From a virus, in the IMG/VR virus record IMGVR_UViG_3300036818_000105, positions 32,001 through 96,000 of that record: 64,000 bases of DNA; one strand, given 5' to 3'. The position numbers and the translations under genes are program-made. Of this stretch, positions 3,423 to 59,897 are shown piece after piece; positions within the stretch are counted from its first letter, which is position 1, and every line of letters begins with the position of its first letter. The notes beneath the pieces were generated by a model, which was not told where the DNA came from, did no database searches, and saw only the letters and a program-made list of their open reading frames with translations.

Positions 3423-4685
3423 GTGACTATACGGAACCGGCTATACCCCGACGCACGGGCGGAAGCGATCATGCGCGACCTGCACTGTGCGCAAGCCCGG
3501 TACGTGTGGAACCTCTGCGTCGAGCAGGAATCCTGGTGGCGGCGGGACCGCGGGAAGATGCCAACCTGGGTAGAGCGATGCCGCCAGTTGGCTGAGGCGC
3601 GGACTGAGTTTGAGTGGCTTCGCGCGGGCAGTAATGCAGTCCAGCAGCAGGCCATCAGGGACTTCGGACGGGCGATGACCGCCTTCCTTGATCCGAAGAA
3701 CCCGGCTAGAGAGCCAACGTTCCGGAAGGCGGTCCGCGATGAAGGATTTCGCATCGTCGGGGAGCGATCGGGACCGCACGTTTCCTGGGGCCTTCGGCGC
3801 CTGAACCGCAATTGGGGCGAGGTCCGCATCCCGAAGGTCGGCTGGGTCCGCTTCCGCTGGTCTAGGCCAGTTCCGGGAGATGTGAAGTCCTTCCGGGTCA
3901 CCCTTGACCGCGCAGGCCGATGGCACGTCTCGTTTCCGTCTCCGCAGGGCGCCGTCGGCCGTCGGCCGACCGGGGCGGCCGTCGGCATTGACCGGGGCGT
4001 CCGAACTGCCCTGGTCACCTCAGAAGGCCAGCATTTCCGAGTGCCCAGAATTGGCGACCGTGCTGCAGGGCGGTACGTCGCCCTGCAGCGGCGCATGTCC
4101 CGCCAGCAGAAGGGCTCGCGCAAGAGGGAGAAAACCCGGCTGGCAATGGCCCGGATCGCGGTAAGGGTTGCCGACCGGCGCAAGGACTGGGCAGAGAAGG
4201 TCTCCACGCGACTTGTTAGCGACTACGACCTGATCGTGTTCGAAAAGCTGAACGTGGTCCGCATGACTCGCAAGTCTGCACCCAAGTCCGATCCTGATCA
4301 GGTCGGTGCATTCCTTCCCAACAAGGCCCGCGCGAAGGCTGGGCTGAACCGAGGCATCCTCGCGGCATGCTGGGGCATTCTGGCCGCCCGTGCCGAGGAG
4401 AAGGCTGTCGCATCAGGCGTGAGTGTCATCTACGTCAACCCGAGATTCACCTCGCAGCAGTGCCATGCGTGCGGCCACGTGAGCCGGAAGAACCGCGAGA
4501 GCCAAGCGGTATTCCGGTGTGAGTCCTGTGGCCACCATGATCATGCTGACGCGAACGCTGCGAAGAACGTACTTGCCCGGGGGCTAGGCACAATGGCGGT
4601 CCCTGCGCACGCCCCGGGTCACGGGGTGCAACGCCCGCATAAGTCCGCGAGAGCGGCGGCGGGAACCACCCGGAGTGCGACATAA
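3423..4685 (+). CDS. tnpB: RNA-guided endonuclease TnpB (IS200/IS605 family), copy 1
   Basis: ARYVWN N-terminus; RuvC motifs GIDRG, VFEKL, HADANAAKN; zinc finger CHAC...CESC. Confidence 0.93.
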   Translation: MTIRNRLYPDARAEAIMRDLHCAQARYVWNLCVEQESWWRRDRGKMPTWVERCRQLAEARTEFEWLRAGSNAVQQQAIRDFGRAMTAFLDPKNPAREPTFRKAVRDEGFRIVGERSGPHVSWGLRRLNRNWGEVRIPKVGWVRFRWSRPVPGDVKSFRVTLDRAGRWHVSFPSPQGAVGRRPTGAAVGIDRGVRTALVTSEGQHFRVPRIGDRAAGRYVALQRRMSRQQKGSRKREKTRLAMARIAVRVADRRKDWAEKVSTRLVSDYDLIVFEKLNVVRMTRKSAPKSDPDQVGAFLPNKARAKAGLNRGILAACWGILAARAEEKAVASGVSVIYVNPRFTSQQCHACGHVSRKNRESQAVFRCESCGHHDHADANAAKNVLARGLGTMAVPAHAPGHGVQRPHKSARAAAGTTRSAT

Positions 4686-15484: not shown

Positions 15485-16078
15485 ATGACCACGCAAACAC
15501 CCCGCAGCCGCGGCGGCAACGGCAAGTTCACCCGCGCCGCCGAGAGCCGCAAGCGCGACTGCCGTGCCGCCGAGCTCCACGGGCAGGGCTGGTCCTACCA
15601 GCGGATCGCCGACGAGCTCGGGTTCGCGTCCAAGGGCCACGCGCACAACGGCGTGATGCGCGCCTACGCCGACATGTGCACCGAGGAGGCGGGGCAGGCC
15701 CGGCAGGCCGACCTTGACCGCATCGACCGGCTCATCGAGCAGGCGTGGCAGGTGATGCTGACCCCGCACCTGACCGTGAACAACGGCAAGGTCATCCGCC
15801 ACTTCGCGGGCTTCGAGCGCGACGAGGACGGCATCGAGCGCCTCGACATGGACGGCAAGCCGATCCCGGTCTTCGTGGACGTGCTCGACGACGGCCCGAG
15901 GCTCGCCGCGGTCGGCGTCATCAAGGGGCTGCTCGAGCGCCGGGCGAGGATCTTCGGCTACGACGCCCCCGCCAAGTCCCGCGTCGAGGTGATCACGGCC
16001 GACATGGTCGAGTCGCAGATCGCCGACCTCGAGTCCCAACTGGCCCGCAATGACCCCGCTGGTCCAGGCACCCCCTGA
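15485..16078 (+). CDS. terS: Terminase small subunit
   Basis: HTH GWSYQRIADELGF; LLERRARIFGYDAP; directly upstream of terL. Confidence 0.8.
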   Translation: MTTQTPRSRGGNGKFTRAAESRKRDCRAAELHGQGWSYQRIADELGFASKGHAHNGVMRAYADMCTEEAGQARQADLDRIDRLIEQAWQVMLTPHLTVNNGKVIRHFAGFERDEDGIERLDMDGKPIPVFVDVLDDGPRLAAVGVIKGLLERRARIFGYDAPAKSRVEVITADMVESQIADLESQLARNDPAGPGTP

Positions 16079-18818
16079 CCGCCTGCGGTACCTGCTGGAG
16101 CTCCAGCGCCGCGCCGCGAGGATCAAGCACGGGATCACCAGGTACTACGACGACCCGGTCGGCTTCGCGCGTGACTGCATCGACTGGGGCGACAGCGAGG
16201 GCCTGACCGAGTACCAGGAGGAGATCCTCGACGGGATTCCCCGCCGCAAGCGCGTCGCGGTACGAGGCCCCCACGGGCTCGGCAAGGCGCTAGAATTGAG
16301 TGTGCGCATACCCACCCCTTCCGGCTGGTCGACCATCGGCGGCCTGCGCGTCGGCGACGAGGTTTTCGACGAGCACGGCAAGCCCTGCCGGGTGACGGGC
16401 AAGTCGCCCGTATGGCACGGCGACACGTACGAAGTCGAGTTTGCGGACAAGACCGTCATCACCGCTCACGGCGAGCACGAGTGGAACGCAGTCGACGTCT
16501 ACCACCGCCCGAAGACACCGAAGCCAGACCGGCGGCCTGTGCCCGTTTCGGACTGGCGCGACCACTGGGTATCGACTAGGCGCGTCACTACCGCGTACAT
16601 GGCGGAGCACATGCTCTCGCCTGGCGGTCAGCTTCGGTGGCGCATCCCGGCAGCACGCCCGCTGGAGCTACGTGCCGCCGACCTGCCGGTTGACCCGTAC
16701 ATCCTTGGGTACTGGCTCGGTGACGGATCGTCGAGGGGCGCCCAGATAACGATCTGCGCCAGCGACTGGCCGAGCCTGCAAGAGCGCCTGAAGGATGCCG
16801 GGTATCACCATGGCGAGCCCCGGCCGCATAAGGCCAGCCCGTCAACCTTCTCAGTGGGCGTCTCCACGCAGCCGGTGCGCCGTGGCGGCGGCCAGCATGA
16901 CACGCTGGCGCTCAGGCTCCGCAATCTCGGCGTCCTCGGCAATAAGCACATCCCGGTGATCTACCAGCGGGCATCCGCGGCGCAGCGCATGGAGGTTGTG
17001 CGCGGACTGTGGGACTCGGACGGCTACCGGCAGGCTGGCGGCAGCGACGAGATCACGCTCACCTGCAAGCCGCTAGCGGATGACGTAGCTGAGCTGCTGC
17101 GGTCTCTCGGCCTGGTGGTCCGGGTAAGCGAAAGCGACTCCAAGATTGACGGGCGCGTGGTCGGCCGCAGGTGGCGCATCGCCGCCCGGTTCGACTTCAA
17201 CCCCTACCGTCTTGCGCGCTACGACTGGGAGCCCCGCGGCCGGCAGTCCTCTCGCCACACCCAGCGGACGATCACGGATATCCGCAGGGTGGCCGACAAG
17301 CCGACCCAGTGCATCGAGGTGGACTCGCCGTCGCACCTGTACCTCGCTGGCGACTCAATGATCCCGACGCACAACTCCGGGATAGCGGCCATCGCCGTCC
17401 ACTGGTTCGCCCTGACGCGGGACGCGGCCGGCGTCGACTGGAAGATCCCTGCGACCGCCGGGTCATGGCACCAGCTGACCCAGTACCTGTTCCCTGAGAT
17501 CCACAAGTGGGCCGGGCGCCTGCGATGGGACAAGGTGCGGGACGGCCGCCCGTTCTCCCGCGCGCACGAGCTCCAGAACCTGAACCTGCGCCTGGCGCAC
17601 GGCTCCGCCTTCGCGGGGGCATCGGCGAACGCGGCGCTGATCGAGGGCGCGCACGCCGACTCGCTGCTGTTCCTGTTCGACGAGGGAAAGGCCATCCCGG
17701 CCGCCACGTTCGACGCATGTGAGGGCGCCCTCGGCGGCACGGGCGAGGCCTTCGCCCTGATCCTGTCAACGCCGGGGGCACCGTCAGGGCGCTTCTACGA
17801 CATCTGCGCGCGCAAGCCCGGCTACGAGGACTGGCACCCTGTCCACGTCACCCTCGAGCGCGCGATCGCCGCCGGGCGCATCAGCGAGGAGTGGGCTGAG
17901 CAGCGCGCCCGTCAGTGGGGCACCGAGTCGGCGATCTACCAGAACCGCGTCCTGGGCGAGTTCTACGCCAGTGACGAGGACTCGGTTATCCCCCTCGCGT
18001 GGGCGGAGGCGGCGGTTGCCCGCTGGCACGCCTGGGACGAGGCCGGGCGTCCGGAACCGGGCAGGCCGCGCACGGTTGGCGTGGACGTGGCCCGCACCGG
18101 CCAGGACCGCACGGTCCTCGCCCTCCGCAACGGCCCGGTGATCACGGAGCTGCGCCGGTCGGTGAAGGAAGACACGATGCAGACCACCGGCCGCGTGAAG
18201 GGCATCCTTGACGCCGACGACTCGGTTACCGCCGTGGTCGACGTGATCGGCATCGGCGCAGGCGTCGTTGACCGCCTCCGCGAGCAGCACGCCCGGGTGC
18301 TGGCTTTCAACGCCTCCCGCGGGTCGAAGGCGAAGGACAGCACGAGGGAGTTCGGCTTCGCGAACCGCCGGAGTGAGGCGTGGTGGACGATGAGGCAGGC
18401 GCTGGACCCGTCGAGCGACCCGGATATCTGCTTCCCTGACGACGAGATGCTGCTCGGTGACCTCTCGGCACCGCAGTGGAAAGTCACGTCATCCGGAAGG
18501 ATCGCGGTGGAGACTAAAGAGGAGATCGCCAAGCGCCTAGGCCGGTCAACTGACGACGGTGACGCGGTAATTCAGGCTTTCGTCCCGCACCTCGGCGAGT
18601 CTTCGCCGGGCACCGTCCGCAAGTGGGCCGGGTCCGTCGAGCTCGACAGCATGGGCGTGAGCGAGGAAACGAAGGCTCACCGCCGCATGAGGGAGATCGC
18701 GGGCAAGGCGGCCGAGGGACTTGAGGACGCGCCGTGGGATCTCGACGGATTCTCGCCGCAGGACGGCGATGACAGACCGCAGGGCGGGCGACGGGGCAAC
18801 GTCCGGACGTGGCAGTAG
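16050..18818 (+). CDS. terL: Terminase large subunit containing an intein
   Basis: Walker A GPHGLGK|S split by the intein; Walker B LFDE; ILSTP; nuclease motifs GVDVARTGQD and RSTDDGDA. Confidence 0.93.
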   Translation: MTPLVQAPPDRLRYLLELQRRAARIKHGITRYYDDPVGFARDCIDWGDSEGLTEYQEEILDGIPRRKRVAVRGPHGLGKALELSVRIPTPSGWSTIGGLRVGDEVFDEHGKPCRVTGKSPVWHGDTYEVEFADKTVITAHGEHEWNAVDVYHRPKTPKPDRRPVPVSDWRDHWVSTRRVTTAYMAEHMLSPGGQLRWRIPAARPLELRAADLPVDPYILGYWLGDGSSRGAQITICASDWPSLQERLKDAGYHHGEPRPHKASPSTFSVGVSTQPVRRGGGQHDTLALRLRNLGVLGNKHIPVIYQRASAAQRMEVVRGLWDSDGYRQAGGSDEITLTCKPLADDVAELLRSLGLVVRVSESDSKIDGRVVGRRWRIAARFDFNPYRLARYDWEPRGRQSSRHTQRTITDIRRVADKPTQCIEVDSPSHLYLAGDSMIPTHNSGIAAIAVHWFALTRDAAGVDWKIPATAGSWHQLTQYLFPEIHKWAGRLRWDKVRDGRPFSRAHELQNLNLRLAHGSAFAGASANAALIEGAHADSLLFLFDEGKAIPAATFDACEGALGGTGEAFALILSTPGAPSGRFYDICARKPGYEDWHPVHVTLERAIAAGRISEEWAEQRARQWGTESAIYQNRVLGEFYASDEDSVIPLAWAEAAVARWHAWDEAGRPEPGRPRTVGVDVARTGQDRTVLALRNGPVITELRRSVKEDTMQTTGRVKGILDADDSVTAVVDVIGIGAGVVDRLREQHARVLAFNASRGSKAKDSTREFGFANRRSEAWWTMRQALDPSSDPDICFPDDEMLLGDLSAPQWKVTSSGRIAVETKEEIAKRLGRSTDDGDAVIQAFVPHLGESSPGTVRKWAGSVELDSMGVSEETKAHRRMREIAGKAAEGLEDAPWDLDGFSPQDGDDRPQGGRRGNVRTWQ
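16287..17375 (+). mobile_element. Class 3 intein (363 aa) with LAGLIDADG homing endonuclease
   Basis: Starts ALELSVRIPTPSGW, ends IPTHN/S; W-C-T triad (HEW, TQCIEVD, PTHN); YILGYWLGDG and RGLWDSDG. Confidence 0.9.
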
Positions 18819-20225: not shown

Positions 20226-20471
20226 ATGACCGACGCTAGCCCGGTTGCCATCCAGCGAGCCATCGCGGCCAACATCCGAGCCGAACGCGCCCGCGCCCGG
20301 CTCTCTCAGCAGGCCGTGGCAGACGCCATGCAGAAGCGCGGGTTCGCCTACTGGCGCCAGCAGACAACCGGAGCGACCGAACGCGGCGAGCGCCGGATAA
20401 CCGCCGATGAACTGACCGCACTCGCCGCCGTATTCGGCACCGCGCCGGAGACGCTCTGGCGGATGCCGTGA
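20226..20471 (+). CDS. XRE-family HTH regulator
   Basis: NIRAERARARLSQQAVADAM...ERGERRITADELTALAAVFG; TAGAAT lies 6 nt before the ATG. Confidence 0.85.
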   Translation: MTDASPVAIQRAIAANIRAERARARLSQQAVADAMQKRGFAYWRQQTTGATERGERRITADELTALAAVFGTAPETLWRMP

Positions 20472-21658
20472 GGCGGGCCTACAAGTTCCTCGCATACCCG
20501 ACGCGACCCCAGGAGGGCCGCTCGGGCGCGCTGCTGCGCGACCACTGCGACCTGTACGACGCCGCGCTCGAGGAACGCCGCGAGGCGTGGCGGATGCGGA
20601 AAGCTCCGGTGTCCTACGGCATGCAGTCTGCCCAGCTCAAGGAGATCCGAGCGGCCGACCCGGACGGGCAGGGGAGGCACTCGTTCACCGCCCAGCAGCA
20701 AACCCTGCGCAGGCTCAACGACGCGTTCGTTATGTTCTACAAGCGGTGCAAGATCCCGGGCAAGAAGCCGGGCTACCCGAGGTTCAAGCCGTACGCCCGG
20801 TTCGATCAGGTCCGGTTCGTCGCCGGAGACGGTGCGAAGTGGACCCCGGCGAACGGCATTGGCTGGGCACGCGCCTACTTCCAGGCGGTCGGCTCGGTCA
20901 AGGTGAAGCAGCACCGGCCGGTGACGGGCACCGTCAAGGCGCTCCAACTCAAGCGGGAGCACCGCCGCTGGTACGTCATCGTCATCACCGAAACTGAGCC
21001 GGTGCCGCTGCCCCCGGCGGGCCGTGAAGTCGGCGTAGACGTGGGGGTGGTGCGGTTCCTGACCACCTCGGACGGCGGGATCGTGGCCAATCCGCGTTTC
21101 TTCGCCGCGTCGGCCGGGGTGATCGCGGACTTGCAGCGCCGCATGAACCGCGCCAGGCCGGGTTCGGGGAACCGCAAGCGGATCAGGCGCGCCCTGGCCC
21201 GGGAGCACCGCAAGGTCAGGAACTCCCGCCGCGACTTCCACCACAAGACCGCGCGAATTCTCATTGACGAGTGTGACGTGATCGCCCTGGAAGACCTCAA
21301 CACGGAAGGGATGACCAGGCGTCCCAAACCGAAGCCCGACCCGGACAAGCCGGGCGAGCACCTCCCGAACGGGGCCGCCTCCAAGGCCGGCCTGAACAAG
21401 TCGATACGCGACGCGGGCTGGGCACAGTTCATGAGCATCATCGTCGGCAAGGCTGAGAGCGCCGGCCGGCGAGTGATCCTGGTGGACCCGCGGAACACGA
21501 GCATCGACTGTCACCAGTGCGGGCGAAGATGCGAGCGCCCGCAGCAGGACACGGTTATCTGCCCCGCGCACGGCGCGATGGACGCCGACGTGAACGGGGC
21601 CAGAAACATCGCCAGCAGGGCCGGGCTGGGCTCTGGTCAGGCCGCGCGAGCGGCCTGA
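20468..21658 (+). CDS. tnpB: RNA-guided endonuclease TnpB, copy 2
   Basis: RAYKFLAYPT; RuvC motifs GVDVG, ALEDL, DADVNGARNI; zinc finger; GTGA-coupled to the XRE gene. Confidence 0.93.
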   Translation: MRRAYKFLAYPTRPQEGRSGALLRDHCDLYDAALEERREAWRMRKAPVSYGMQSAQLKEIRAADPDGQGRHSFTAQQQTLRRLNDAFVMFYKRCKIPGKKPGYPRFKPYARFDQVRFVAGDGAKWTPANGIGWARAYFQAVGSVKVKQHRPVTGTVKALQLKREHRRWYVIVITETEPVPLPPAGREVGVDVGVVRFLTTSDGGIVANPRFFAASAGVIADLQRRMNRARPGSGNRKRIRRALAREHRKVRNSRRDFHHKTARILIDECDVIALEDLNTEGMTRRPKPKPDPDKPGEHLPNGAASKAGLNKSIRDAGWAQFMSIIVGKAESAGRRVILVDPRNTSIDCHQCGRRCERPQQDTVICPAHGAMDADVNGARNIASRAGLGSGQAARAA

Positions 21659-21711
21659 GAAGGTGGCGGAGCGATCCGCCATAGCAGTCACCCAGTTTTC
21701 CAGATACGTCG
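21590..21711 (+). ncRNA. omegaRNA of tnpB #2 (5' boundary approximate); right end at TCAC 21691, guide from 21692
   Basis: Hairpin TGGCGGA-GCGA-TCCGCCA followed by TAGCAGTCAC. Confidence 0.75.
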
Positions 21712-21727
21712 ACGACTTCTTTCTCTC

Positions 21728-21774
21728 CTCCCTGCTGCACGGCGGCGAAAGCCCCGCCGCCAGGCAGCAGGGAG
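21728..21774 (+). terminator. GC-rich hairpin just downstream of the guide
   Basis: CTCCCTGCTGC...GCAGCAGGGAG with an inner GGCGG/CCGCC stem. Confidence 0.55.
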
Positions 21775-21812
21775 CGTGACCGGCACTGCCTCCGCACGCT
21801 AGCCTGTGAGCG

Positions 21813-21847
21813 TGCACGTGCATTCGTCGCGTGCAGATGCACACGCT
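21813..21847 (+). promoter_or_regulatory. Late-promoter-like motif, copy 3 (portal; third box degenerate)
   Basis: TGCACGTGCA-N7-CGTGCA-GA-TGCACAC. Confidence 0.65.
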
Positions 21848-21875
21848 AGCGGCGGAGAGGAGGTGATGCTTGGGT

Positions 21876-23492
21876 ATGGTCGACACTCGCTCCGCAAATG
21901 TCGTCGCCTTCCCCGACCTCGCGCCGAAGGGCTCTCGCGGCCCCAGCGGCAAGCGGGCCCTTTTGGGTCCAGAGGTAGGGACGTCGTTCGATTACGGACA
22001 GCGCTTGTTCGCCTACTATTAGTTAAGGCGAAGGAGATGTGTTCGACTACGGCTTAGCGAATTTTCCGCTCGTGACTACAAAACGATGTTGTCCCGTAAC
22101 GGAATGTGCGCGGCCATCGAGCAGGTACTCACTCTCCCGATCAGGGGCGCCCCGTACACCATCGAGCCCGCCAAGGGTGACCAGGGCGAGGCCGAGTTCG
22201 TGACCAGCGTTCTCATGACAGCCGACGAGGACGGCGGCATGAAAACACCTATCAGCACGCTGGTCGGCCAGATTACGAGCGCGCAGATTTTCCGTCGCGC
22301 CTTCTTCGAACGTACTTACAAGGTTCGCGAATCCGACGGCAAGATCATTTACGACAAGGTGGCCTTTCGCCCCCCCGCGACCTGTCAGGCCAGGTACAAC
22401 GACCGTACGGGCGAGCCGAACGGGTTCCGTCAGCAGGTCTGGTTGTTCGGCGGGAACTTGATGCTCAACCGCACTCAGAAGGTTCCCGGCTACGTCGACA
22501 TCCCGAAAATCAGGAGCTACATATACACCCACGGGAAACACAGGGAACCTCTCACTGGTGTCAGTGAGATGGAAACGGCCTACTGGTGCTACCAGACCCA
22601 GGCGAAGCTAGCCTACCTATGGCTCAGCTTTCTCGAGGGAATGGCGATGCAGCGCCTCGTCGTCTACGGCAACGACCAGCCGGAGGCATCCCAGCGAGCG
22701 GATGACATCTCCCAGCTGCGCGGTTCCGGCATTGTCGGCCTTATCCACCCGATCGACGGGCAGAAGTCGTTCGAGGCCCTCCCCACGGCCGCGGACGCGG
22801 GCGCCCAGTTCGCGGCGTGCATGACGTACCTGGAGAACTGGGCAGCCAGCAGCGTCCTCGCCGGCTTCCTGCAGCTTTCCGGCGCGGCGGCGAAGGGCAC
22901 CCGGGCGGGCGGCGGCGCCAGTGCCGGCTCCTACGGCATGAGCGAGGACCAGAGCTCGTACTACCTGGCCTCCCGTGAGGCGGCGGCAACGGAGATAGCG
23001 GACAGTATCTCCCATGACCTGATCCGCCCCCTGGTGACCCTGAACTTCGGCGCGGACGCGGCGTTCCCGAAGTGGAAGTTCGGCCCGTTGCAGGAGGCCA
23101 TGACGGCCGTACTTTTCACCATGTTCGGGCAGCTAGCCGCCGCCCCCAAATTGAACCTGCCCCTCGCGTTCGTGGACCTCCTCACCGAGCGGATGGCGGT
23201 GATCCTGAACCTGGACGCGGACCAGATTCACGAGTCGCTGGTGAATACCGCGTCGCAGCGGGCGGAGGCGCTGGCGGGCAATCCCCCGCCCGGCATACCC
23301 CCGGAGGCCGCGGCGGGACTGGGGCAGTTGCAGGGGCTGGCGCAGGCGGGGACGTCGATCGCGCAGCAGGCGATAGCGAGGAACGGCGGGCCGCCGACGC
23401 CGCCGAAGGTGACCATGCCGCCGGCCGGGCCGCCCGCGCCCCCGCCCAAGCCGCCGATGGCCGGGGGACTCGCGGGGGCGGCGGCGCAGTGA
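21876..23492 (+). CDS. Portal protein; 5' part interrupted by 7-nt and 5-nt inserts (uninterrupted ORF is 22086..23492)
   Basis: Position after terL; ISHDLIRPLVTLNFG typical of Mu gp29/DUF935-type portals; AGGAGG RBS before ATG 21876, in frame with 22086. Confidence 0.8.
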
Positions 23493-59850: not shown

Positions 59851-59897
59851 TGCACGTGCATTCGCAGCGTGCATCTGCACGTGCATGAGACTAACCT
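59851..59897 (+). promoter_or_regulatory. Late-promoter-like motif, copy 5 (tail-fibre operon)
   Basis: TGCACGTGCA-N7-CGTGCA-TC-TGCACGTGCA-N6-TAACCT, 6 nt before ATG 59904. Confidence 0.8.

Follow-up and report, generated by a model that had tools for sequence, protein, structure and literature searches.

UUA-led coding gaps were reportedly noticed by Smith et al. in 2013 in the large terminase of phage phiHau3 (g6/g7/g8), and hops of the ribosome at hungry or stop codons are said to have been obtained in the laboratory in Escherichia coli by Weiss et al. in 1987 and by Gallant and co-workers. Gene 60 of phage T4 carries a UAG directly after its take-off codon. For phiHau3 and two Streptomyces prophages, the sections of the study drawn on here describe UUA-led gaps of 10 or 7 nt in terminase genes, at four sites and in three of the 100 genes examined; the junction peptide of the phiHau3 cassette was detected by mass spectrometry in E. 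coli after UUA had been replaced by UAA, and the authors call UUA-triggered bypassing largely overlooked and not yet proven in Streptomyces (Antonov et al. 2023, PMC10732093). T4 MobA, according to the part of the preprint used here, is an HNH homing endonuclease that moves together with a recoded stretch of homologous sequence and a bypass insert preventing self-cleavage, and the bypass can persist when the endonuclease is lost or another nuclease takes its place (Manning and Atkins, bioRxiv 2022.08.31.505936); a possible UUA-linked bypass is also suggested, in an excerpt of a further paper, for the primase genes 50/51 of Bxb1 (PNAS 2025, PMC12646305). Here we analysed a 64,000-nt stretch of the genome of a soil phage (bases 32001-96000 of IMG/VR record IMGVR_UViG_3300036818_000105, hereafter the window), in which the gene of the portal protein is broken by two inserts of 7 and 5 nt that are likely to be passed by translational bypassing. 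No portal example of bypassing was found in our literature searches, which included a search for the word "portal" in PMC10732093.

The portal locus resembles the phiHau3 terminase in that a high-GC actinophage has short frame-breaking inserts where an essential gene for DNA packaging is highly conserved, with UUA as the first codon of most inserts, TTA otherwise avoided, flanks that are contiguous in homologues and a landing codon that can be proposed; in both, a stop can replace UUA (UAA in the E. coli assay there, natural TGA or TAG here). Unlike phiHau3, the gene is the portal and not the terminase, the window's first insert opens on UAG, and relatives carry 50 core inserts of 2-15 nt at no fewer than ten sites, as well as a site in the gene body, with up to four inserts per gene; the portal case is also known here from sequence alone. 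A further difference is that the inserts lie in a patch of low G+C at third codon positions (GC3) which is linked to genes of HNH-NUMOD3 endonucleases, a feature of which no report was met for phiHau3 in the cited sections (PMC10732093).

With T4 gene 60 and MobA the locus shares a stop or hungry codon right after take-off, UAG in the first insert of the window too, and a landing triplet that is matched or near-matched. As in MobA, the inserts of some relatives lie in a conserved stretch adjoining the gene of a free-standing HNH homing endonuclease, this nuclease may be lost or another may take its place while the putative bypass stays, and recent gains are seen as near-identical genomes with and without the element; the HNH protein found here carries NUMOD3 and is likened to MobA by its architecture. 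Unlike in gene 60, the gaps measure 2-15 nt (20 nt in one loose contig end) and not 50 nt, there is no significant take-off stem-loop, and the triplets in the window are near-matched instead of identical. Unlike either T4 system, no gene is split, no N- or C-terminal extensions are added, many sites per gene are used instead of one fixed site, and the hosts are of the high-GC actinomycete type as opposed to gamma-proteobacteria. The laboratory hops in E. coli are similar in being forward hops of a few bases, in which the peptidyl-tRNA re-pairs on a matching triplet when the A-site codon is slow; those were low-level events in reporters, whereas the arrangement seen here is a fixed part of an essential gene, maintained by selection throughout a phage lineage. 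The decoding principle proposed is thus the one already described, and what is new is the gene, the more varied gap lengths (down to 2 nt), the stop-led insert, the multi-site hot spot and the link with homing endonucleases.

The interrupted portal gene

The break of the portal frame by two inserts was confirmed by direct reading of the sequence and by three-frame translation, and the coordinates, frames, 12-nt total and take-off and landing codons given in a preliminary description of the window proved exact. All parts of the gene lie on the + strand. Frame 0 opens at ATG 21876, 8 nt behind a Shine-Dalgarno-like (SD) motif, GGAGGTGAT (21859-21867); this motif is also 2 nt before an alternative in-frame start, TTG 21870, the homologues, however, begin MVDT. 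The first segment (21876-22019, codons 1-48) reads MVDTRSANVV...GQRLFAYY, aligns with the N-termini of intact homologues, and runs into a TAG at 22020-22022. This stop opens insert 1, TAGTTAA (22020-22026, 7 nt), which is missing from intact homologues in both DNA and frame-aware alignments; its putative take-off codon is TAT (22017-22019), the last codon of the segment, with UAG in the A site and UUA next, and its landing triplet would be TAA (22024-22026). The second segment, GEGDVFDYG (22027-22053), is read in the +1 frame and ends on the second putative take-off codon, GGC (22051-22053). It is followed by insert 2, TTAGC (22054-22058, 5 nt), also absent from intact relatives in the alignments, which would place UUA in the A site and AGC (22056-22058) at the landing position. 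The third segment, EFSARDYKTM..., extends from 22059 to the stop at 23492 and contains the called open reading frame (ORF) 22086-23492, the ATG of which encodes the M of EFSARDYKTM. Of the two inserts, only the second opens on UUA; the first opens on UAG and has UUA as its next codon.

Since the inserts add up to 12 nt, the outer frames match. Each take-off and landing pair (TAT..TAA and GGC..AGC) is identical at two of three positions. The insert-free product comprises 48 + 9 + 477 = 534 residues, within the range of the intact homologues, and with both inserts removed 49 of 61 core positions are identical to the intact relative P0032. The 468-aa ORF 22086-23492 was assigned to Portal_Mu (PF06074; E 1.5e-25, 90.7 bits against a cut-off of 23.9, profile positions 7-321 of 336), profile position 7 falling on its first residue, and the portal frame of the window is open for 454 codons from the LTLPIR anchor. 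Direct reading of the sequence revealed no SD-like motif ahead of ATG 22086; the earlier statement that this ORF lacks a ribosome-binding site of its own while ATG 21876 has one was borne out.

A protein search with the 468-aa ORF returned homologues of two length classes, ~520-547 aa and ~465 aa. Members of the longer class read ...GQRLFAYY, G-E/D-GDVFDYG, E-W/F/Y... without a break, and many of the shorter ones were called from the internal Met; the homologues reach ~60 residues upstream of the point aligned to ATG 22086. All 44 intact homologues examined agree at seven residues of the second segment: G51, G53, V55, F56, D57, Y58 and G59. Intact relatives thus join all three pieces as had been predicted, and the homologue N-termini, together with the invariant residues, show that the portal does not start near 22086. 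Among cultured phages, tblastn found 13 records of 26-37% identity; the two that were opened, the Streptomyces phages LazerLemon and Intolerant (36% identity), were both intact, with a contiguous N-terminal extension of 58 residues. A blastn search of the phage collection with 21660-22400 gave no match, and the only relative from a cellular genome is a contig in a Streptosporangiaceae metagenome-assembled genome, which has the intact form. In relatives P0017 and P0026 the gene was called straight through in frame 0, with a nonsense stretch replacing GEGDVFDYG. Gene callers thus either shorten such portals or misread through the inserts, which leads to mis-annotation in metagenomic catalogues.

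One close portal homologue, P0025 (815 aa; loci L086 and L087), has a LAGLIDADG_3 domain (PF14528) inside the portal, probably an intein; selfish elements of several kinds thus reside in the portal genes of this lineage.

Inserts in related portal genes

DNA of relatives was collected from viral, metagenome and genome collections, and the 5' regions were aligned to intact P0032 by an alignment that allows base skips in the DNA. Loci were used if they contained the LTLPIR anchor and at least 215 nt upstream of it; 13 without the anchor and six that were too short were left out. The remaining 143 loci yielded 77 unique core sequences, of which six were dropped and 71 counted. Dropped were L050, L155 and L165 (distant, with unreliable alignment), L088 (rearranged body), L080 (a 2-nt break without a hungry codon) and L048 (an in-frame TGA and a long branch). 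Seven in-frame codon indels without TTA or a stop were counted as ordinary indels, and site F in L149 and L095 was parsed by hand. The TGA of L048 stands exactly at the first Gly of a G-S-GDVF motif (TAT TAC TGA TCC), in a gene whose body forms a very long branch; a 3-nt hop, readthrough of the stop or death of the gene could each explain it.

The inserts are real features of a whole phage lineage and follow a strict grammar. The gene is interrupted in 41 of the 71 unique relatives and intact in 30, in which both inserts of the window are absent and the flanks align codon for codon; in a plain nucleotide alignment, too, the inserts appear as clean gaps in intact genes. One insert was found in 14 of the interrupted sequences, two in 22, three in four and four in one. 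The 50 distinct core inserts fall within ~45 codons, and, within the N-terminal core of the 71 relatives, inserts led by TTA, TGA or TAG are the only frame breaks. A further site, after RRAFF in the gene body, carries inserts of 8 or 10 nt (TTC|TTA..GTC|GAG) in five loci; with this exception, the frame of the bodies stays open over 446-468 codons counted from the anchor. As had been anticipated, the same sites and their neighbours bear inserts of varying sequence: at the site of insert 2, relatives have inserts of 11, 13 and 14 nt, all TTA-led. Identical designs are present in many assemblies, with up to 12 loci per pattern, some loci being one record in two collections. Contigs of relatives from four further public runs break exactly at 22018-22020 and 22052-22057, none spanning the stretch, and the loose contig ends in these runs hold further variants at the same sites, including the one of 20 nt. 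A relative's contig in one of the runs, X4, lacks only the TAG and reads TAT|TTAA|GGC, which leaves TTAA as the first insert.

Of the 50 distinct inserts, 43 open on TTA, one on TT|A, five on TGA and one, that of the window, on TAG. The last triplet of the insert agreed with the codon preceding the insert at two or more positions in 42 of 50 cases, and was fully cognate in 18 (mean agreement 2.04 positions); at twelve shifted control offsets the means were 0.36-1.00, and agreement at two or more positions occurred in one to ten of 50. For example, ACY lands on ACC in every variant of the EIGT site, GGC on GGC, AGC or TGC, and TTC on TTC, TTT, GTC or CTC. The lengths of the inserts are conserved among variants of differing letters. 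Some in-frame inserts, those of 9 and 15 nt among them, hold stops (e.g., TTATAAACC and TTAGAACGCTAATTC), so that neither simple decoding nor a one-base shift rescues the frame.

Take-off codons ending in U are enriched. The Tyr take-off codon is TAT in 11 and TAC in one of the interrupted genes, compared with 29 TAC and two TAT in intact ones; Asp is GAT in six and GAC in none, against 55 GAC and nine GAT, and Thr is ACT in four and ACC in two, against 22 ACC and two ACT. Codons ending in U would weaken pairing in the P site. TTA is otherwise avoided in this genome, which has a G+C content of 70.7%: it accounts for seven of 27,926 codons in 118 sense-like ORFs, several of them probably upstream of true starts, and for two of 8,625 codons in 19 long ORFs. 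Outside the five loci with the RRAFF body site, no TTA was found in the portal bodies. No tRNA genes were found in the whole 124-kb genome. Among the very few plausible in-frame TTA codons is one in a 511-codon sense-like ORF at genome base 24099 (7,901 bases before the start of the window), where GCC TTA CTT occurs in frame at codon 128; this TTA may be an ordinary Leu codon or a 3-nt hop. Three crude codon-usage scans of the genome and all loci returned only the known portal sites; they were weak, one version missing known sites, and do not show that hop sites are lacking elsewhere.

The inserts lie in a recoded 5' patch of ~250-300 nt with low GC3. The 41-codon core of interrupted genes has a GC3 of 0.63 compared with 0.87 in their bodies, the corresponding values being 0.90 and 0.96 in intact genes and 0.63 and 0.86 in the window. 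The shift of synonymous sites towards A and T, seen in the window (21876-22085) and in 36 interrupted relatives, is confined to insert-bearing genes; its cause may lie in co-conversion of the patch, in nuclease escape or in translational selection. Local RNA structure was less distinctive: folds at the 50 insert sites had a mean z of -0.58 (five below -2) compared with -0.02 in 132 intact controls (six below -2), a weak difference. The Phe-Ala and Gly-Glu codons around YY are mutually complementary and form a small native hairpin, and the codons of GEGD are SD-like by necessity.

The insert-free reading is under strong purifying selection. With the inserts removed, the ratio of nonsynonymous to synonymous substitution rates (dN/dS) over the 41 codons upstream of the internal Met was 0.113 in interrupted and 0.224 in intact genes. 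Two features of this estimate weaken it: the value for interrupted genes comes from 243 usable pairs of 780, the other 537 being unusable mostly through saturation, and similarity between proteins guided the frame-aware alignment, with a downward bias of dN as the consequence. The counts of variants given above, likewise, are not phylogenetically independent. In a quick tree, with Shimodaira-Hasegawa-like approximate likelihood ratio test (SH-aLRT) support only and a midpoint root, every one of the 18 rows in the clade of the window is interrupted, though not in the same pattern, and four interrupted genes stand beside intact sisters, close ones in three cases and a more distant one in the fourth (L117/L114). 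Inserts are thus maintained, and yet turn over fast.

Decoding, origin and alternative readings

Decoding of the interrupted genes by translational bypassing, the reading already put forward in the preliminary description, gained support from each comparative test that was run (contiguous homologues, upstream N-termini, recurring variable inserts) and is quite likely; the hop itself and its efficiency we infer. At the first site, the peptidyl-tRNA-Tyr would stand on UAU (22017-22019) with UAG in the A site and UUA behind it, nothing decoding quickly; the tRNA would release, the ribosome would slide by 7 nt, and re-pairing on the near-cognate UAA (22024-22026) would let translation resume at GGC. 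Nine codons on, the peptidyl-tRNA-Gly on GGC (22051-22053) would meet the almost unused UUA, and a 5-nt move to AGC would allow decoding to continue from GAA 22059. The restriction of the inserts to the first ~135 codons would fit a low cost of failure, in that a failed hop would yield a short peptide and not a truncated subunit; it would fit closeness to an upstream nuclease gene as well.

Several points weigh against this account. Its support comes, for all of these genes, from the comparison of sequences alone, and the scarcity of tRNA-Leu(UAA) is assumed, from codon avoidance and from published Streptomyces biology. Insert 1 opens on UAG, at which release factor competes, and two hops in series multiply any inefficiency. 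Both landing triplets of the window match at only two of three positions, the local RNA structure is not significant (z of -1.45 for the window fold), and the exact pair of TAGTTAA and TTAGC is known from one assembly only.

The origin of the inserts may be sought in homing. Immediately upstream of the portal, 15 of 41 interrupted unique sequences, and none of 30 intact ones, have a gene for a protein with the domains HNH_3 and NUMOD3 (402 aa as a stop-to-stop ORF; Fisher p 7.6e-5, shared ancestry ignored). Sister pairs show the contrast directly: L031 has the HNH gene and two inserts and L026 neither, L145 has the HNH gene and one insert and L151 neither, and in both pairs sliding identity is 90-100% in the portal bodies and 62-88% in the first ~250 nt. 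Between L032 and L033, which have no HNH gene, a ~300-nt patch of 47-87% identity is flanked on both sides by 93-100%. In the relatives, the recoded patch would travel with the free-standing endonuclease gene; by analogy with T4 MobA and gene 60, the inserts most likely destroy the site that a nuclease recognises where the gene is most conserved, and the protein would be kept intact by bypassing. Against this origin it must be said that the HNH gene is absent from 26 of the 41 interrupted sequences and that no HNH-NUMOD3 homologue was found in the window. Immunity to a nuclease is a plausible source of the inserts for the lineage, one to which, judging from the association, we would give belief and doubt in equal parts. 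The scars of nuclease repair considered in the preliminary description come near the observed link with homing-endonuclease genes. As a whole, a portal of ~534 residues made by way of two short bypasses, with an origin linked to nucleases, is the best explanation of the compared sequences and a probable one.

It is also conceivable, if unlikely, that the hops occur and are regulatory, as the preliminary description had proposed. Full-length portal would then be made only when the host tRNA-Leu(UAA) is scarce, in vegetative growth, a decoded UUA would send the ribosome into out-of-frame stops, and the link with endonucleases would be incidental. Such a model is published for the phiHau3 terminase in the sections of the study drawn on here (PMC10732093). 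None of the 18 rows in the clade of the window is without an insert, although the sites differ, which resembles selection for having one. The portal is present in 12 copies per virion, and a hungry-codon attenuator would suit a protein needed in that number. A stop, however, cannot sense tRNA-Leu, and six of the 50 distinct inserts, including the first of the window, are stop-led; one insert would be enough for sensing, yet 27 of the 41 interrupted sequences have two to four; and the position of the inserts in mosaic recoded patches linked to HNH genes is nothing that a pure sensor predicts. These three observations speak against sensing as the chief reason why the inserts exist. A portal that starts at ATG 22086 (468 aa), behind the decaying remains of a dispensable extension, is improbable. 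Gene callers start many relatives at the same Met, the Portal_Mu profile begins only ~6 residues upstream of it, and in an AlphaFold2 model of intact P0032 (44 homologues, mean pLDDT, the predicted local distance difference test score, of 57.8) the N-terminal 60 residues score below 50, the model being too poor to weigh. Decay is contradicted by the dN/dS of 0.11 on the insert-free reading, by insert lengths that are conserved while the letters vary, and by the finding that only hungry or stop-led inserts break the core frame in the 71 sequences kept (L080 and L048, among those dropped, show other defects); there is a strong SD before 21876 and none before 22086, and the extension is present in all intact homologues, cultured Streptomyces phages included. 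Nor does the record suit a defective prophage, as had been considered, being that of a complete phage with direct terminal repeats.

One-base frameshifts or readthrough of stops, giving junctions with a few extra or different residues, would in principle pass inserts of 4 and 7 nt (+1) and of 5 nt (-1 or +2), and P0017 and P0026 have been gene-called in frame 0 throughout. Antonov et al. could not, in the cited part of their paper, formally exclude +1 shifts at every Streptomyces site (PMC10732093). Neither site of the window, however, has a slippery heptamer (C TAC TAT TAG and TAC GGC TTA contain no X XXY YYZ) or a triplet on which the P-site tRNA could re-pair at +1 or -1, and what the comparison with shifted controls does reveal is a near-cognate triplet at the hop distance. 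Because the seven invariant residues lie in the +1-frame segment, reading through the TAG in frame 0, an alternative raised at the outset, would destroy and replace them, the insert lengths of relatives often do not sum to a multiple of 3, and the in-frame 9- and 15-nt inserts contain stops. Hopping, moreover, is what mass spectrometry demonstrated for the phiHau3 g6/7 cassette in E. coli, according to another passage of that paper (PMC10732093). We regard shifts and readthrough as having little probability. Still smaller is the probability that the inserts are removed, or absent, at the level of nucleic acid, through RNA processing, slippage heterogeneity between 3-nt repeats or error of assembly, an idea favoured by the single assembly that holds the exact inserts of the window and by the identical triplets that flank many inserts (ACC..ACC, GGC..GGC). 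We know of no bacterial or phage mechanism that splices out pieces of 2-15 nt, and repeats of 3 nt are too short for efficient and precise deletion. An assembly error, which the preliminary description had also listed, would neither open on TTA or a stop nor end near-cognate, and many independent assemblies share these designs, which turn up in four further public runs as well.

If bypassing is indeed the decoding mechanism, the survey provides dozens of natural hop variants in a second essential gene, beyond the terminase. Their regularities (hungry or stop codon first, near-cognate landing, U-ending take-off, 2-15 nt, first ~135 codons) make the question of what causes a ribosome to hop, and how far, answerable by way of ready reporter constructs. 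The endonuclease link and the mosaic patch would extend the logic of T4 MobA and gene 60 to high-GC actinophages, and suggest that bypassing may be a recurrent answer to nuclease pressure on invariant coding DNA.

TnpB and the packaging neighbourhood

The virus record comprises 124,491 bp, has direct terminal repeats and is rated complete. Its packaging module consists, around the portal, of the large terminase, then an XRE-TnpB pair, then the portal. The large terminase (16050-18815) has PHROG terminase matches on both halves and a LAGLIDADG-type intein (PF14528, PF05204) in the middle; intein domains also occur in terminases upstream of the portals of relatives (L027:529-2772). The genes of an XRE-type helix-turn-helix protein and of TnpB span 20226-21658 on the + strand, TnpB itself being encoded at 20468-21655 and showing the Pfam domains OrfB_IS605 and Cas12f1-like TNB, and the unit, taken with the stretch past the right end of TnpB, extends to 21710. 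It fills the slot between terL and the portal, which in relatives is occupied by the HNH-NUMOD3 endonuclease.

The reverse complement of 21692-21710, a 19-nt stretch past the right end of TnpB, matched the TYLENW codons of the portal (22823-22841) at 17 of 19 positions, and this stretch matched the portal genes of relatives at 17-18 of 19 and at 21 of 24. The match fits a putative TnpB guide aimed at rival portal alleles. It lies ~770 nt from the inserts and not on them, which counts against a direct part of TnpB in their origin; as the window also lacks the HNH gene, the nuclease link of this locus would be one of descent and analogy and not a direct one. A blastn-short search of the intact core DNA against the genome and a subset of the loci, for a guide at the insert region, returned only chance matches of 13-14 nt, and the stretch after the TnpB of locus L049 had no convincing portal match.

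A wider reading, which we put forward tentatively and are more inclined to doubt than to believe, is that phages attack the portal DNA of their rivals where it is most conserved, by HNH-NUMOD3 in the relatives or by RNA-guided TnpB in the window, and that the inserts are marks of immunity. The nuclease element would carry the recoded patch with its micro-inserts, which would destroy the recognition site, and hopping would, equally tentatively, be the general mechanism by which these are tolerated, so that the DNA of an essential and invariant protein motif could be rewritten. If this were true, the ~55 natural variants would document one escape after another and could be read as a set of rules for hops over short distances.

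TnpB was also considered as a general partner of the interrupted portals and rejected, as tblastn of the window's TnpB on a subset of the loci found, besides the window itself, only L049 and a paralogue in the phage's own genome. This paralogue lies at 3444-4592 of the window and is 34% identical to the TnpB at 20468-21655; the TnpB of L049, with 31% identity, lies upstream of its portal (1385-2266). Fifteen public DNA sequencing runs matched this phage, each at no more than 0.07 of the sampled words, and no RNA run did. In one intact clade (L026:595-2379 and the group of L030, L073 and L075) the gene that immediately precedes the portal encodes a Ro60/TROVE protein with a von Willebrand factor A (vWA) domain. 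A GC-rich palindromic motif lies a short way ahead of the portal start in the window (21813-21842), of which a second copy is found at 59851-59880 (87% over 30 nt) and which also precedes the portal of a relative (L005, 1548-1570); it may be a shared regulatory or terminator-like element.

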